Virus record (IMG/VR): IMGVR_UViG_3300048598_000596
Location: 1-37,887 of that record
DNA length: 37,887 nucleotides
Source: a virus
Taxonomy: Duplodnaviria; Caudoviricetes
Strand: one strand, 5' to 3'
In this document: one piece after another, positions 22,071-30,420 of the stretch
Position numbering within the stretch: the first letter of the stretch is position 1
Layout of the letters: each line of letters opens with the position of its first letter
The notes under the pieces: generated by a model
Told to the model about the DNA's origin: nothing
Seen by the model: the letters and a program-made list of their open reading frames with translations, nothing else
The model's database searches: none
Translations under genes and position numbers: made by a program

Positions 22071-23342
22071 ATGGCAACAACAAAAGAAACTGCAATACAG
22101 AAACTTATCTACACTCAGATAAAACGCCAAAATCTCGACATTTCAAACTGGCGAAAGGCGTTAAAAGCTGCTGAGCAAAAAGCCGAATATCACCCGCGCC
22201 GTTACTCGTTGTACGACATTTACAATGAGATAATACTTGACACACATTTGTCGTCGGTGATAGATAAGCGAAAAAAGGCAATATTAAACGCGCGTATTGA
22301 ATTTGTTCGCAATGGCGTGCCAGACGAAAAAATAAACGAACAATTGCGCTCACCTTGGTTTCTGCGTTTTCTTAACGACCTGCTAGACACTGAGTATTGG
22401 GGATTCTCTGTATTTCAATTCTTTAACGACGCAACTGGCTGGATTAATTACGACCTCATTCCGCGTAAGCATGTATCGCCGGAGGAAGGCTTAATTCTTC
22501 GCCGGCAAGAGGACTCTTCAGGCGAACTTTTCGAATCGTTTCCGAATCTTGTTACAATAGGCAATCAATACGACCTTGGCCTGTTGAACAAAATCGCACC
22601 AATGGCCATTTACAAACGTAACTGCATGGCCGACCTTGCACAGTATTCAGAGCTTTACGGGCAACCGATTAAGGAGGCAACCTACGACGGATTGGATGAA
22701 ACAATTCGCGAAAAACTGTTAACCGACCTGACCGAAATAGGCTCGTCGCCTGTAATCATTCACCCCGACGGAACAAAAATAAACATTTTAGACACCCTCG
22801 GAAAAGGAACTACAACCACGCTGTTTCAGACCTGTATTAACCTTTACGACCAGCAAATTTCAAAAGCGATTTTGGGTAATGTTTTAACTACCGATTCCGG
22901 CGCAAACGGAAGTCGGTCGCTGGGCGAGGTGCAACAGGAAAGCGAAGTTCAAAAACAAGAAGCCGACCGCATTTTTGTACTTAATACGCTCAACTACAAT
23001 TTAGCAGACATCTTTAACACCTTAGGATTCAATACACAAGGAGGCTTGTTTTCGTTTGTGAAAAACGAAAACATAGACCTGACTACTGCTATTGAGATAG
23101 ACATGAAATTGTCGAATCTTGGCGTGCCACTCGATGACGATTATTTCTATACCACTTACGGTCGCCCGAAACCCGCTAATTACGATGCGCTGAAAAGCGA
23201 AATGAAGGCAAAACAAGTACAACAACAGCAACCCACTTTCAGCAACAAAGCGGACGAACCTTATTTTTCGGGTTCTAAAAAAACGCATCTCAATGCTAAG
23301 CCGAAAAACATCTGGCAAAAGGGTGCCGATTTTTTCGGTTAA
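22071..23342 (+). CDS. Portal protein, DUF935 / Mu gp29-like
   Basis: DTHLSSVIDKRK, ELYGQP, QISKAILGNVLTT, SRSLGEV. Confidence 0.9.
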   Translation: MATTKETAIQKLIYTQIKRQNLDISNWRKALKAAEQKAEYHPRRYSLYDIYNEIILDTHLSSVIDKRKKAILNARIEFVRNGVPDEKINEQLRSPWFLRFLNDLLDTEYWGFSVFQFFNDATGWINYDLIPRKHVSPEEGLILRRQEDSSGELFESFPNLVTIGNQYDLGLLNKIAPMAIYKRNCMADLAQYSELYGQPIKEATYDGLDETIREKLLTDLTEIGSSPVIIHPDGTKINILDTLGKGTTTTLFQTCINLYDQQISKAILGNVLTTDSGANGSRSLGEVQQESEVQKQEADRIFVLNTLNYNLADIFNTLGFNTQGGLFSFVKNENIDLTTAIEIDMKLSNLGVPLDDDYFYTTYGRPKPANYDALKSEMKAKQVQQQQPTFSNKADEPYFSGSKKTHLNAKPKNIWQKGADFFG

Positions 23343-23359
23343 GCCCTCCACGCGAGGGC
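23330..23359 (+). other. Putative -1 programmed ribosomal frameshift signal (portal to MuF)
   Basis: T-TTT-TTC at 23330-23336, 6-nt spacer, GCCCTC-CACGC-GAGGGC hairpin 23343-23359; -1 frame open into MuF. Confidence 0.78.
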
Positions 23360-24655
23360 ATTACAGCAAAAATTGACAAGCTTTACGCGCAAACCTGCAC
23401 GCATTGTGCCGGTATTCAGGTTTTTAATGTGGCGGGCGACAACCCGTTTTCGGACATCGGTGCAGAGCTGTTTGAGCATGTTTTAAAAAACATATACCAG
23501 GAGCGTGTTGACGTTAAGAACGAAATAGAACCGAACTTGTTCTTTTCGGCCTTCAATCTTTTCGACGATGCCGTAAAACAAGCGTTTGGGCAAGTGGAAT
23601 GGGGACAACCCAATTACGAATTTGTAAACGAGTTACGGCACAACAATGCGGTGTTTTCCGCCTTTCGCGCGCATGCACAAGCCAATGAACTGGCAAAGCA
23701 GCTGCTCGACGAAAACGACAAGCTGAAATCGTTCTCAAAATTCAAAACCGATTGCGCGCCTGTGCTCGAAAAATGGAACGTAAACCATTTAAAAACAGAG
23801 TACAACACAGCCGTTATACGTGCGCGTGCGGCTGCTAAATGGAAAGACTTTGAGCGCGATGCAGACCTGTACCCGAACCTGATGTGGCTACCCTCAACCA
23901 GTGCCGAGCAACGGCCTTATCATCAACCGTTTTACGGCAAAATATGGCCTATCAACGATCCGTTTTGGAGCACCAATTATCCGGGTAACTTGTGGAACTG
24001 CAAGTGCGGCATAACCAATACCGACAGCAAGCCCACGGGCAAAGGTGTTGAAGCTGATTACAAGCCTGCCGACGGGCTCGACGGTAATCCGGGGAAAACA
24101 GCCAAATTGTTTTCGGATAAACACCCTTATATAGCCGATGCCGACAAAGGGGTACGTAAGCTGGCTGAGCAAAAAGCCAATGAAATAGTGCCGTTACCCG
24201 AAACCTATAAAGGCAAAAAAGGAGGTTACCTCAATATCGTTCCGCAAAACGGAGCAGAGGCCGCCAAAAATTTAAAAACGTACAAAATAATGGCAGATAA
24301 TGGCGGTCAATATGAGCTAATTAAACCTATTAACAACGAGAAAGGCAAAAAAAATCCCGATGCATTAAATAGGCGTACAGGTAAACTTTCGGATGCTAAA
24401 CATCCTGTTACTGATAAAGGAATAAATGCAATTCAAAATTCGATAAAGGAAGCCTCACGTCAGGGGGTGAGCGAGGTAGTAATAAGACTGGATATGAATT
24501 ACAGTGTGCGTTCTATTTTCGAAGGTTTTAAAGCAGCCTTACAGGGTAATAGAGCCAGCAGTATTGAGACAATTATTCTTATACGCAAAAACAAAAAACC
24601 GATGTATTTTAAAACCGAAGAGTTGAGGGCATTCTTTAAAAGAAAACAAGGCTAA
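23336..24655 (+). CDS. MuF (Mu gp30-like) minor head protein with C-terminal CdiA-like PD-(D/E)xK nuclease domain, probably made as a portal fusion
   Basis: HLKTEYNTA, YPNLMW, RPYH, DPFW..YPGNLWNCKC MuF motifs; C-terminal KNPDA...SDAK...IQNSIKEASRQG..VVI; frame open from the slippery site (ORF track start 23429 is GTG). Confidence 0.82.
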   Translation, partial: RLSPPREGITAKIDKLYAQTCTHCAGIQVFNVAGDNPFSDIGAELFEHVLKNIYQERVDVKNEIEPNLFFSAFNLFDDAVKQAFGQVEWGQPNYEFVNELRHNNAVFSAFRAHAQANELAKQLLDENDKLKSFSKFKTDCAPVLEKWNVNHLKTEYNTAVIRARAAAKWKDFERDADLYPNLMWLPSTSAEQRPYHQPFYGKIWPINDPFWSTNYPGNLWNCKCGITNTDSKPTGKGVEADYKPADGLDGNPGKTAKLFSDKHPYIADADKGVRKLAEQKANEIVPLPETYKGKKGGYLNIVPQNGAEAAKNLKTYKIMADNGGQYELIKPINNEKGKKNPDALNRRTGKLSDAKHPVTDKGINAIQNSIKEASRQGVSEVVIRLDMNYSVRSIFEGFKAALQGNRASSIETIILIRKNKKPMYFKTEELRAFFKRKQG

Positions 24656-24715
24656 TACTAAAAGTACCAGCCTGTTTGGGGGAGTGATGTCGGTTGCCCG
24701 AATTACATCTCTCCG
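24640..24715 (-). ncRNA. Putative ~80-nt sRNA: tRNA acceptor-stem-like minihelix ending C-CCA, then intrinsic terminator
   Basis: TATCTTTG -7 element 24727-24720; GGAG-A-GAUGU/ACAUC-A-CUCC stem capped by CGG-GCAA-CCG; CCCA; terminator AGGCUGGUACU/AGUAUUAGCCU plus U-run. Confidence 0.6.
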
Positions 24716-24778
24716 TGTGCAAAGATACAACATAAATTCTTTAATTCTCTAACTACTTCATTCTTTAACTTCTTAGCT

Positions 24779-25339
24779 ATGACTCCCGAAGAATTTAGTA
24801 ATGCACTCATGCGCGCAATTCCTTCAATAAAGGAATATGCAGCGCAGGAGTTTCCGCGCAGGGCGCTAAAAATAGGCATCGACCATTTTCAGAACAACTT
24901 TCGCAAAGGCGGGTTTGTAAACGGCGGGTTGCATCCGTGGCCAAAGGCAAAACGGCAAACGGGCGGTAAATATGCCCTCAACAACTACGGCACGCTGCTA
25001 AGTGCACGTAACGAACTGTTCAACAGCATCGGCGGTATTACACGCTCCGGACAGGCAGTAATTAGGGTTGACAAAGAGTACGCGCAGATACACAACGATG
25101 GCGGTACCATTAATCATCCCGGGGGTACGGCCTATTTTTCGAAAAGCGGTAGAGCCGTGTTTGTGAAAAACGAAACCGCAGCGCGGTATCAGAGCCTGCA
25201 TTTAAAACCGATGAAACGCACCGCGCCGCATAAGATAACTATCCCCAAACGGCAGTTTATTGGTGAGAGCATTGAGCTCAACGATGCCCTTTCGGCTCAG
25301 GTAGAAAAAGATTTTTTACGGATTTTAAACTTCGATTAA
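24779..25339 (+). CDS. Phage virion morphogenesis protein (Mu gpG/gp31-like)
   Basis: FQNNFRKGGF, YAQIHNDGG, IPKRQFIG. Confidence 0.85.
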   Translation: MTPEEFSNALMRAIPSIKEYAAQEFPRRALKIGIDHFQNNFRKGGFVNGGLHPWPKAKRQTGGKYALNNYGTLLSARNELFNSIGGITRSGQAVIRVDKEYAQIHNDGGTINHPGGTAYFSKSGRAVFVKNETAARYQSLHLKPMKRTAPHKITIPKRQFIGESIELNDALSAQVEKDFLRILNFD

Positions 25340-25353
25340 ACAGTATTTAAACG

Positions 25354-25884
25354 ATGGAAACATTATTCATTTCTATTCAAAAGCGCATTGAAGACACACA
25401 GCCCGACATGGCTATGATTGACGAAGATTACGGTCAATTACAATCGCCCGACGAAGACGGTTATCCTGTTGTTTTTCCGTGCGTGTTAATCAACGTTCAG
25501 CAAGTGGATTGGAGCGACGCCTCGCGCGGCATGCAAATGGGCGACAGTGCCCGTATTGTGATTAAATTGGCGATAGATTGTTACGACGATACGCACAACA
25601 AAAGCTATACACAAACAAAAGCTTATGAGCGCATGATGGCAGCTAAAGAGCTACACAAGCAGCTACAGCGTTTTGCCGGCAAAATAATTACCGACGACGA
25701 CGGAAACATACTCGACAACCACTTTTCGCCGCTCACCCGAATACAGAGCCGGCAATACGCCCTGCCCGGCGGTATAAAGGTTTACGAAACCACTTACACA
25801 ACCGCCATTACCGACCGCAGTTGCGTGCCCGAGTTGGATACCGTGCCCAAACCAAAGATAAAGATTAGCGCTTCTTTTAAATAA
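25354..25884 (+). CDS. Tail terminator / head-tail completion protein (gp37-like)
   Basis: IDEDYGQL..YPVVFPCVLI, IKVYETTY; end of packaging operon. Confidence 0.65.
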   Translation: METLFISIQKRIEDTQPDMAMIDEDYGQLQSPDEDGYPVVFPCVLINVQQVDWSDASRGMQMGDSARIVIKLAIDCYDDTHNKSYTQTKAYERMMAAKELHKQLQRFAGKIITDDDGNILDNHFSPLTRIQSRQYALPGGIKVYETTYTTAITDRSCVPELDTVPKPKIKISASFK

Positions 25885-25889
25885 GAAAC

Positions 25890-25915
25890 GCCCGGTGGTG
25901 TGCCGGGCTTTTGTT
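25890..25915 (+). terminator. Intrinsic terminator of packaging operon
   Basis: GCCCGG-TGGTGTG-CCGGGC followed by TTTTGTTG. Confidence 0.7.
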
Positions 25916-25933
25916 GTTTTTTACATTGATGTA

Positions 25934-26362
25934 TTACTCTGTAAAATGAAACTCGATTAACTTCCAGTTTTTACCATCCGTGTAATCACCTCCCTTATAT
26001 TGCAATTTTGCATAATAATTAGACCGAACAGTGGCTCCAAATTCATTTTGACTATCAACATACGATTTTAATATGAAAACACTATCCGCTGTAGACCATG
26101 TTCCTGCCGACTCCAAAGGGAAATTGGCAGAAGACGGCGACTTAAGGTTTTCTTTAACAAACTCTTTTGCAAAGAAATAAGCTTTATCCGAAAGCTGCTC
26201 TTTAGTCGGACCCGAAAAAGCCGAAAATATTATAGCAATTAATACTATTGCCAAAACACCAATAATAGAAAAAGTAGCGACTTTCGCCTCCTTGGGCTGA
26301 TCCTTATAAGGAACTTTTGCTCGTTCCTCCTTACTCAATTTTTTAAATTCTGAATACTTCAT
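25934..26362 (-). CDS. Single-pass membrane protein (moron-like)
   Basis: TM segment, then LKSPSSANFP and YVDSQNEFGA motifs; start ATG 26362. Confidence 0.65.
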   Translation of the reverse strand: MKYSEFKKLSKEERAKVPYKDQPKEAKVATFSIIGVLAIVLIAIIFSAFSGPTKEQLSDKAYFFAKEFVKENLKSPSSANFPLESAGTWSTADSVFILKSYVDSQNEFGATVRSNYYAKLQYKGGDYTDGKNWKLIEFHFTE

Positions 26363-29288: not shown

Positions 29289-29572
29289 AGCACAATTTCG
29301 GTTAAATCGAGCGCATCGGCTATTTGTATTTCGAGGTTTCCGCCGCGACTGTCGTATGCATCCGGAAAAATGAAATAAGCATCGCAACTTACCAACGCAG
29401 CAATACATTTACGCATCGCCAAGCACCAGTTATCCTCGGTTTCAGGAATAAGCTTAATGGGGTTTACAACCTCCATTCCGCCCGCTGTAAACAACTCTTC
29501 AACCTTGTTAAATTTAGCCTCTACCGCCTCGCGTTCGAGGCCGGTTACCTTACCAATTAGATATACTTTCAT
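29285..29572 (-). CDS. DUF4406 / nucleoside 2-deoxyribosyltransferase-like protein
   Basis: KVYLIGKVTG, VVNP, CDA, SRGGNLE. Confidence 0.85.
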   Translation of the reverse strand: MKVYLIGKVTGLEREAVEAKFNKVEELFTAGGMEVVNPIKLIPETEDNWCLAMRKCIAALVSCDAYFIFPDAYDSRGGNLEIQIADALDLTEIVL

Positions 29573-30420
29573 GCTAAGTCAATTAAAGCGTTTCTAATTT
29601 TCCGGTTTGTTTTAGCCTTCTTTTTTAGCTTCTTAAGAGCCTCGTTGCGGATGAAATAAACATACTCGCGACTTATACCCAAATCCCGCGCGATGTCGGT
29701 ATCAATTTGACAGAATTCGCGACCAATTCCATACGTGCGAATAATTATATCAACCTCTCGTTCAGTTATATATCGCAAAAGCGTTTCTTTAACGCGACTT
29801 GGGTTGTTATATTCAACCGCATTGTTAAACAAAAGAATATCTGCCAGCGATGTGTTTTCGCTTTCGTCGCTACATTTGTCAATGTGCGTTACCGCTGTGC
29901 TACGGTTGGCAAGGTCGACACGCTGAACAGCAAAACCGAGTAAACTCGCAGCCTCCGGAAAGGTTAACATTATGCCGCTTTCGGCATAACAGCGGTCGAT
30001 GTAAGCCCTGCATTTGTTCAACTCGCTTGACGACTGCCCCGGAAGGCGTATTAAGCGCGAATCCTGATTAACGTACTTGAGTATTTCCATACGTATGTAC
30101 CACACCGCAAAAGAGATAAACTTGAGTCCTCGCGAAGGGTCAAAACGCTCGGCTGCCTGTATCAATCCGCAGTTGCCGACTTGTATTAAGTCGCACAATT
30201 CCACTGACCTATGCTGATACTGTTTAGCCACAGACACAACAAACCGCGCAGCACTTTTAATGAGCTTTTCGCGACTGGCCGCATCGCCGGCAGCGGCCAG
30301 CTCTGCAATGCGTACTTCGTCGGCGGCTGTAAGCACCTCACATTGCCGCATATCATTCATATACTTTTCTATATAACCGGTTCTAACGGTTATGTTTTCT
30401 GTTATTTTTAGTTGTCGCAT
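29569..30420 (-). CDS. Phage-encoded sigma-70 (RpoD/SigA-like) factor
   Basis: MRQLKIT N-terminus like the Bacteroidota primary sigma; RFVVSVAKQY, DLIQVGNCGL..AAERFD..RGLKFISFAVWYIR; region 4 HTH IARDLGISREYV. Confidence 0.88.
   Translation of the reverse strand: MRQLKITENITVRTGYIEKYMNDMRQCEVLTAADEVRIAELAAAGDAASREKLIKSAARFVVSVAKQYQHRSVELCDLIQVGNCGLIQAAERFDPSRGLKFISFAVWYIRMEILKYVNQDSRLIRLPGQSSSELNKCRAYIDRCYAESGIMLTFPEAASLLGFAVQRVDLANRSTAVTHIDKCSDESENTSLADILLFNNAVEYNNPSRVKETLLRYITEREVDIIIRTYGIGREFCQIDTDIARDLGISREYVYFIRNEALKKLKKKAKTNRKIRNALIDLA

Follow-up and report, generated by a model that had tools for sequence, protein, structure and literature searches.

How is a nuclease joined to a phage head protein held in check where no immunity gene stands next to it? 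In the available text of Jamet et al., 2017 (PMC5576092), 89.4% of 191 MuF toxins are followed by small immunity ORFs, and the accessible part of PMC11699363 reports protein immunity for the MuF toxins Bxa and Apk2; there and in the corresponding part of PMC12254948, what MuF toxins do in the phage cycle is described as unknown. The locus described here shares with those systems a MuF domain next to portal/terminase and a variable C-terminal toxin domain, but it differs from them in having a convergent non-coding element in the immunity slot and no conserved immunity ORF. Nuclease-tailed MuF proteins without such an ORF previously had no evident safeguard. The element is real, and it is one member of an uncatalogued family; standing behind a MuF toxin that lacks the immunity ORF normal for such loci, it would act in the manner of a type III antitoxin. 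A sequence-only reading had proposed as much, with a small RNA resembling a tRNA minihelix as the antitoxin to a virion-borne tRNase.

Locus and toxin

The window, i.e. the whole 37,887-nucleotide stretch that was analysed, is the same as the provirus record. Pfam identifies genes for a Mu-type portal, gp36, MuF, a transposase region and GemA, and relatives are located in Bacteroidota genomes. The features on which the argument turns are as follows:

22071-23342 (+), Mu-type portal protein (PF06074; Pfam E 6.5e-76)
23330-23359 (+), predicted signal for -1 frameshifting (T TTT TTC, then a GC hairpin), end of the portal gene
23429-24199 (+), MuF (PF04233; Pfam) minor head protein part; frame also open upstream to the portal slippery site
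24200-24655 (+), predicted tRNase toxin, a C-terminal PD-(D/E)xK nuclease domain, CdiA_C-like
24638-24677 (-), terminator-like hairpin plus U-run, overlapping the toxin stop codon (fold z -5.08)
24677-24680 (-), tail C-C-C-(A), its conserved part being the first two C (tail counts over 31 loci)
24681-24714 (-), hairpin 1, acceptor/minihelix-like: 4 bp, A.A mismatch, G-C (folding, alignment)
24720-24727 (-), TAnnTTTG promoter-like octamer, TATCTTTG, position conserved in homologues
24779-25339 (+), virion morphogenesis gene, next after the toxin, weakly Phage_tail_S-like (PF05069, E 0.003)

The gene following the toxin encodes 186 aa and is structural, by its weak Pfam match to PF05069, rather than a small immunity ORF; its relatives come after the toxin in most prophage loci.

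The ORF at 23429-24655 combines a MuF match (Pfam E 1.6e-10) with a weak match to CdiA_C (PF18451; E 4.5e-5, 24 bits, under the 26.6 cut-off). An AlphaFold2 model of the last 151 residues of the toxin has a mean pLDDT of 91, and its sole Foldseek match under E 0.001 is 4G6V, the CdiA-CT of B. pseudomallei 1026b (E 1.4e-4), a modest match with TM 0.55/0.62, rmsd 5.3 and 19% identity. The catalytic motif PD...D-x-K is intact in 35/35 close relatives. A PDB sequence search with the toxin profile gave no meaningful match, and tblastn of 50,697 phage records gave none. According to the available text of PMC9086364, CdiA-CT1026b, the nearest solved relative, cleaves tRNA-Ala in the acceptor stem and requires Mg2+ alone, and the same superfamily also includes a T-loop tRNase and two DNases. 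The PD-(D/E)xK fold and the acidic plus lysine catalytic motif are common to the CdiA-CT/CdiI 1026b system (4G6V, PF18451) and the window toxin; unlike the latter, CdiA-CT1026b, at 19% identity, is delivered by two-partner secretion and blocked by a protein, CdiI. The modelled fold agrees with the earlier claim of an acceptor-stem nuclease, and from 4G6V alone we infer that the window nuclease would cut tRNA acceptor ends.

The tails of MuF proteins vary among relatives: L093, with 45% MuF identity, has a different tail and a different element. In sequencing run X1, a contig from a related strain covers MuF (23288-24137) at depth 22 and stops at the start of the nuclease domain, for which the contig (24328-24478) has a depth of 3; this hints weakly at other toxin tails in other strains.

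The element in the window

All of the letters that the sequence-only reading assigned to the minus-strand element are present where it placed them. The GGAG-A-GAUG...CAUC-A-CUCC hairpin lies at 24714-24681 (-), with a 13-nt uninterrupted 3' arm and a bulge in the 5' arm; CCC follows at 24680-24678 and A at 24677. The terminator hairpin spans 24677-24644 (-), with its U-run reaching 24638, and does lie over the toxin stop codon, the overlap being the last 18 nt of the toxin ORF, stop included. It had been described as 11 bp; the minimum free energy structure gives 15 bp with a bulge, and in that structure the terminator stem opens with the A of the window 'CCA', so that the RNA would have no free 3' end there unless it were processed.

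The minus strand from 24715 to 24635 (81 nt) folds into two hairpins linked by CCC at -30.4 kcal/mol (z -4.89), equalled by none of 200 shuffles; the plus strand of the same 81 nt gives -25.9 kcal/mol (z -3.14). A GNRA loop and G-U pairs fitting one strand only had been offered as the guide to orientation, a point that does not hold, as hairpin 1 alone gives -14.5 vs -14.6 and the strands are equal. It is the promoter, the U-run and the homologues that fix the minus strand as the sense strand, and the minus strand folds better than the plus in 27/27 homologues tested. TAnnTTTG, which we take to be the Bacteroidota -7 promoter element, is not enriched in the window (34 found vs 44 expected); since the octamer is common by chance, its weight rests on its fixed position in the homologues.

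Rfam, at E up to 5 over window positions 23000-26000, has no match at the element. ARAGORN finds no tRNA anywhere in the window and no cloverleaf, and the loop of hairpin 1 has no T-loop sequence or consensus. A peptide reading was considered and rejected: the 64-aa minus-strand ORF begins upstream of the promoter, the AUG inside the predicted RNA is immediately followed by UAA, and plus-strand ORFs in the gap are unrelated from locus to locus.

Elsewhere in the window, a terminator-like hairpin at 25883-25951 (-) gives a sub-threshold match to OrzO-P (Rfam E 0.22), with a second TATCTTTG close to it at 25853-25860 (-), and the prophage has its own sigma-70-family factor (29569-30420, minus strand; regions 1.2, 2 and 4).

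Conservation and covariation in close relatives

Four scans yielded 48 loci; with 13 duplicates set aside, 35 distinct loci encode a related MuF–CdiA_C nuclease, and one of them, L001, is identical to the window. The promoter and stem looked for behind MuF-CdiA loci do recur, the minus-strand promoter motif in 35/35, at 62-178 nt beyond the toxin stop and ending in TTTG in 34 and TTCG in 1, and the stem core in 31/35. This core, found by a detector rule of a 4-bp stem beginning with G, a mismatch and then C, consists of the 4-bp stem, the mismatch, a G-C pair, a tail C-C-N and then a terminator; it was unparsed in L029, L030, L042 and L043. In the homologues, as in the window, a hairpin with a U-run comes after hairpin 1.

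A MAFFT alignment that included the flanks slipped in register, giving a consensus for the terminator only, and was replaced by one of 24 of the 31 loci, seven near-duplicates being omitted, cut from stem end to stem end. Here 98.7% of 158 cells are paired, versus 43-65% in slid controls, a figure that leans toward structure because the rows were selected and trimmed by the pairing rule. Both-sided changes occur at 5 of the 7 pairs, in 34 cells as against 9.2 in shuffles (0/500 as high), the informative ones lying at pair 2 (GC/UA/UG) and pair 3 (AU/GC/UA/UG). The top G-C pair and the next C are invariant in the 24 aligned loci. Position 5 is mismatched in 31/31 loci, as the detector required, and the mismatch noted in the window as A-A varies in its letters (AA 12, AG 8, CU 6, GA 3, GG 2).

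In the tails of the 31 loci, C is found at +1 in 31, at +2 in 30 and at +3 in 20 (with U in 5, G in 4 and A in 2), and A at +4 in 15; after toxins are merged at 70% identity, the corresponding counts are 21, 20, 14 and 13 of 21 clusters. Of the conserved N-CCA that the sequence-only reading expected, half is therefore borne out: CC is conserved (30/31 loci), and CCA is merely its commonest form, with NCCA in 11/31 loci and 10/21 clusters. For comparison with the proposed 12-13-bp helix, the 3' arm is 12-14 nt in 16/27, 9-10 nt in 6 and 16-20 nt in 5. The GNRA tetraloop is local to the window, since loop length in the family varies between 3 and 8 nt.

In a tree of 56 toxin domains, whose deep branches are weak, the window type forms a 24-row clade (95/90) which spans Dysgonomonas, Capnocytophaga, Prevotellaceae and Odoribacter with one RNA type; RNA type thus tracks toxin clade across host families. 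Toxin and element are also found together without MuF, Capnocytophaga loci included. Loci L012, L013 and L044-L048 have a stand-alone toxin plus element of a Capnocytophaga type with an extra 5' hairpin, and in six of these seven a C.U mismatch replaces the purine mismatch.

These data on conservation and clade-coupling, with toxin and element moving as a unit, would also suit an RNA that serves an active RNP as partner, cofactor or built-in substrate, riding in the head and guiding, activating or timing the nuclease. We consider this quite improbable: with no immunity protein evident at the locus, an intact nuclease needs some restraint, and the nearest solved relative needs only Mg2+ (PMC9086364, available text).

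A covariance model, R1, was built from the close family and is weak. Of the close loci held out, it picked up 7 (E 4e-6 to 0.23); L029, L030, L042 and L043 escaped it, there was one chance-level match elsewhere, and it detected 2 of 5 genomes known to carry the element. Applied to 121 genomes, this weak model found no copy apart from a toxin gene, both of its matches being training loci; a genome match that had looked new was dropped as a blind confirmation on proving identical to training locus L016. The result bears on another proposal, in which the RNA is a decoy for host factors such as tRNA-targeting defence nucleases or tRNA-end sensors, with some other restraint on the nuclease. In the accessible part of PMC11555353, a role for phage tRNAs against tRNA-cutting defences is reported; on the other side, the type of RNA goes with the toxin clade whatever the host family, and R1, weak as it is, found no copy away from a toxin gene in the 121 genomes, and we regard the proposal as very improbable.

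Which tRNA end the element may resemble

The host comparison was with one Dysgonomonas genome, for which 38 distinct tRNA genes are listed. The serine-like start seen by the sequence-only reading stands as far as GGAGAGAUG is the 5' start of Dysgonomonas tRNA-Ser(TGA) (GGAGAGATG); it does not extend to the family, as the GGAG/CUCC top is present in 8/21 clusters. Specific mimicry of tRNA-Ser was rejected, given that C always follows the stem where the host tRNA-Ser has G73, and an Ala-specific mimic is unsupported, with G3.U70 in 0/24 aligned loci.

Among the listed Dysgonomonas tRNAs, C73 is found in tRNA-His only, together with a G before position 1. If the top pair is read as G-1:C73, the conserved CC becomes 74-75 and position 76 is free, and the common shape of 8 bp, one 5' bulge and 5 bp (L004, L015, L016, L017, L020 and L039, for example) is that of the His acceptor plus T stem. 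The exact GGUG/CACC top occurs in 10/31 loci and 3/21 clusters. The top G-C followed by CC, and in 16/27 a 3' arm of 12-14 nt, recall a tRNA-His acceptor or minihelix; unlike these, the element is without a T-loop consensus or a conserved terminal A, and it has a fixed mismatch and a covalently attached terminator hairpin. The register of the sequence-only reading, C73 C74 C75 A76, is also possible and has the backing of L135 and L139, in which U-CCA comes after a 4-bp stem and an A.A mismatch. A tRNA-His-like register fits at least as well, and in the window clade it is the one we favour; if right, it would point to tRNA-His as the target of the nuclease.

Elements behind distant nucleases

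Pfam and profile searches of sampled genomes, with three viral scans, gave a distant set of 64 loci in 45 clusters, 40 of which have the promoter motif. Among these 40 promoter clusters, CC lies at +2+3 (N-C-C right after the stem) in 17, three unparsed ones being counted as misses, compared with a CC background of 7% (binomial p 4e-10, relatedness ignored); CC is at +1+2 only in 6/40 and in neither register in 17/40, and NCCA is seen in 4/40. Many distant toxins have a GGU/ACC-U-CC RNA type.

The hairpin begins exactly 4 nt past the octamer in 24 of 32 promoter-proximal hairpins, in a fold with the first 3 bases masked and with which unmasked folds concur; this spacing suggests that the first G is the 5' end of the RNA. 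When 27 of the 32 hairpins were scored, L104, L124, L132, L152 and L157 being omitted, 13/27 agreed with a host tRNA at 8-9 of the 9 positions of stem top and discriminator, versus 7.3 in column shuffles, the permutation p of 0.003 ignoring relatedness in a set where Cys-like RNAs dominate and independent events are few. Examples matching at 9/9 are Gly at L139 and Cys at L175, L180 and L190.

A 75-nt tRNA-Tyr-like gene (L152:1933-2007, minus strand; Rfam 40.1 bits) is convergent with a MuF-CdiA_C gene. Its anticodon stem is mispaired and its cloverleaf present, and the Dysgonomonas host-type tRNA-Tyr has 84 nt; a scan with the L152 toxin gave no viral relatives. L157 and L159 (G458:C19) are tandem stand-alone modules of nuclease plus element with no MuF. 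At L147 (G705:C412), the nuclease gene is frameshifted with promoter and terminator retained, and hairpin 1 is unlike those of the intact relatives L132 and L133.

In the RNA-seq comparison, six runs contain part of the region; four were examined, all as contigs, and only one is surely RNA. That run has a 151-nt contig at 24629-24779, extending beyond the predicted 5' end, and another at 24857-25007, at depth 2. The contigs say nothing for or against a discrete small RNA. That no transcript was seen, in one sure RNA run and in contigs, and that the octamer is frequent by chance would both suit a locus with no functional RNA, where a terminator accompanies an incidental promoter-like motif and hairpin, or where the conserved stretch is a DNA-level site of cassette exchange. 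The double-sided covariation, the strand bias (27/27) and the 4-nt octamer spacing (24/32) argue otherwise, and we hold this to be the least probable of the readings weighed here.

The immunity slot and the antisense alternative

The gap downstream of the toxin holds no conserved small ORF in the 18 loci examined. The proposal that an RNA takes the place of the immunity gene is upheld in so far as a convergent, covarying, RNA-like element occupies the slot. As a control, the best 30 of 59 MuF matches were compared, 15 with nuclease tails (7 PBECR2 above the cut-off, 1 weak PBECR3, 1 weak CdiA_C and 6 PD-(D/E)xK-like by eye) and 15 with other tails. Behind the nuclease-tailed MuF genes the gap is 101-186 nt in 13/15, and 2/15 have no co-oriented ORF within 600 nt; behind the others it is at most 21 nt in 9/15 and 60-311 nt in 6/15. 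L105 is a doubtful member of this control because the frame chosen gave no MuF match. Folding z-scores behind MuF genes overlap, and do not cleanly separate nuclease from non-nuclease tails.

By eye, and with z-scores mixed, the gap behind PBECR2-tailed MuF holds a convergent structured stretch of different sequence, which broadens the phenomenon and shows that it extends past acceptor mimics; a structured RNA downstream of a nuclease need not imply tRNA mimicry, and antisense control as a general scheme might account for it. In such a scheme, akin to type I, the RNA would pair in cis with late mRNA reading through the toxin 3' end and the intergenic region and trigger its decay, hairpin 1 being a stabilising 5' stem and CC a pairing toehold. 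The layout is convergent, the RNA in the window overlaps the last 18 nt of the toxin ORF, and a late transcript running into the co-oriented next gene would be complementary to the whole of it; the convergent stretches of the PBECR2 nuclease family add to this. Such complementarity is automatic, though, and would not fix the top G-C, the position of the mismatch, the following G-C and the CC, nor would it explain the tRNA-specific stem tops and the tRNA-like gene of L152. In L008 and L031, a further hairpin separates hairpin 1 from the stop, 73-76 nt away. Antisense action would presumably also fail to explain how the cell is protected when lytic growth requires synthesis of the fusion protein. 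On balance we find this explanation unlikely, if the strongest rival to mimicry.

The PBECR2-group gaps also stand as an observation in their own right. In seven MuF-PBECR2 loci (L100, L102, L113, L115, L116, L123 and L129) and L101 they measure 139-186 nt, L100 being without a co-oriented gene, and their convergent structured stretches have short motifs in common; seven were scanned with no Rfam match. They are likely to be a second RNA family. Behind the PD-(D/E)xK-like MuF tails of L103, L104, L107 and L108 lies a third convergent structured family, in which a terminal helix surrounds two inner hairpins of common sequence.

Comparison with known systems

The window element resembles type I antitoxins and other counter-transcribed RNAs as a convergent two-hairpin small RNA over a toxin 3' end; 18 nt of the ORF are overlapped in the window, and the whole element is antisense to any read-through. 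It differs in having conserved position-specific bases that antisense pairing does not explain, and no Rfam match. Type I toxins are mostly small membrane peptides. With the type III systems toxIN, cptIN and tenpIN the proposed likeness is that of a structured RNA which would bind and inhibit a nuclease toxin. The available text of PMC12283969 describes their RNAs as tandem pseudoknot repeats upstream of the toxin and co-transcribed with it; the window element lacks a layout with repeats and terminator ahead of the toxin on its own strand, being a single stem-loop, downstream, on the opposite strand and paired with an unrelated nuclease. The window has no ToxN-, CptN- or TenpN-type Pfam match and no catalogued antitoxin RNA in Rfam.

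A full-text literature search, with most subscription papers and supplements outside its reach, brought up no description of such an RNA. The main text of PMC5576092 has 0 occurrences of 'Bacteroid' and 'antisense', and its supplementary tables could list such loci; 'noncoding' and 'ncRNA' are absent from the accessible part of PMC5512222, as are 'small RNA' and 'non-coding' from that of bioRxiv 10.64898/2026.08.28.747851.

A proposed tRNA-mimic antitoxin and the predicted portal frameshift

The conserved covarying element, the fold resembling an acceptor-stem tRNase and the recurring N-C-C tails lend the sequence-only reading partial support. Judged from sequence, a type-III-like RNA antitoxin acting on the MuF nuclease by tRNA acceptor-end mimicry has, we think, an even chance of being correct. 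On this account, a small RNA of ~75 nt would be made from its own backward-facing promoter, starting at or near the first G; the promoter would fire independently of the late operon, and the RNA would be present in the lysogen and during head assembly. It would bind the active site of the nuclease by imitating a tRNA acceptor end without being chargeable itself, the nuclease reading the stem, the mismatch and the CC, and the variable base after CC and the attached terminator preventing aminoacylation. The lysogen and the phage-producing cell would be protected; a few portal-MuF-nuclease fusions, made by frameshifting, would be packaged in the head, and in a new host without the RNA the delivered nuclease would cut tRNA.

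A wider proposal seems possible to us, though its chances fall somewhat short of even: an overlooked layer of RNA immunity in which each virion-borne MuF tRNase has a convergent RNA copying the acceptor end of its target tRNA (His-, Cys-, Gly- or other-like, with a full tRNA-like gene in one case), other RNA families serve the PBECR nucleases, and the portal frameshift sets the dose of toxin in the head. The decoy sequence would then reveal the toxin's target tRNA, providing a rule by which toxin specificity might be read off adjacent non-coding sequence. If the mimicry is true, this would be an RNA antitoxin acting by tRNA substrate mimicry, unlike the pseudoknot repeats of type III; even if the RNA acts as antisense, it belongs to an RNA family that is uncatalogued and widespread among the prophages of Bacteroidota from gut, mouth and environment. 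At ~75 nt and 150 aa, RNA and domain form a pair compact enough to be tested directly.

The frameshift signal that formed part of the module first proposed is conserved, with T TTT TTC in the portal frame and a GC hairpin in 22/23 loci. Reading on in the -1 frame leads into MuF-toxin at 7 loci, including the window type; another 13 encode the portal-MuF-toxin fusion in the zero frame and meet a -1 stop within 12-32 codons; two signal-bearing loci are irregular in frame arrangement. As far as can be told from sequence, this supports programmed frameshifting that would make both portal and fusion. The same slippery signal appears with opposite logic, as the -1 shift would yield the fusion at some loci and the short portal at others.
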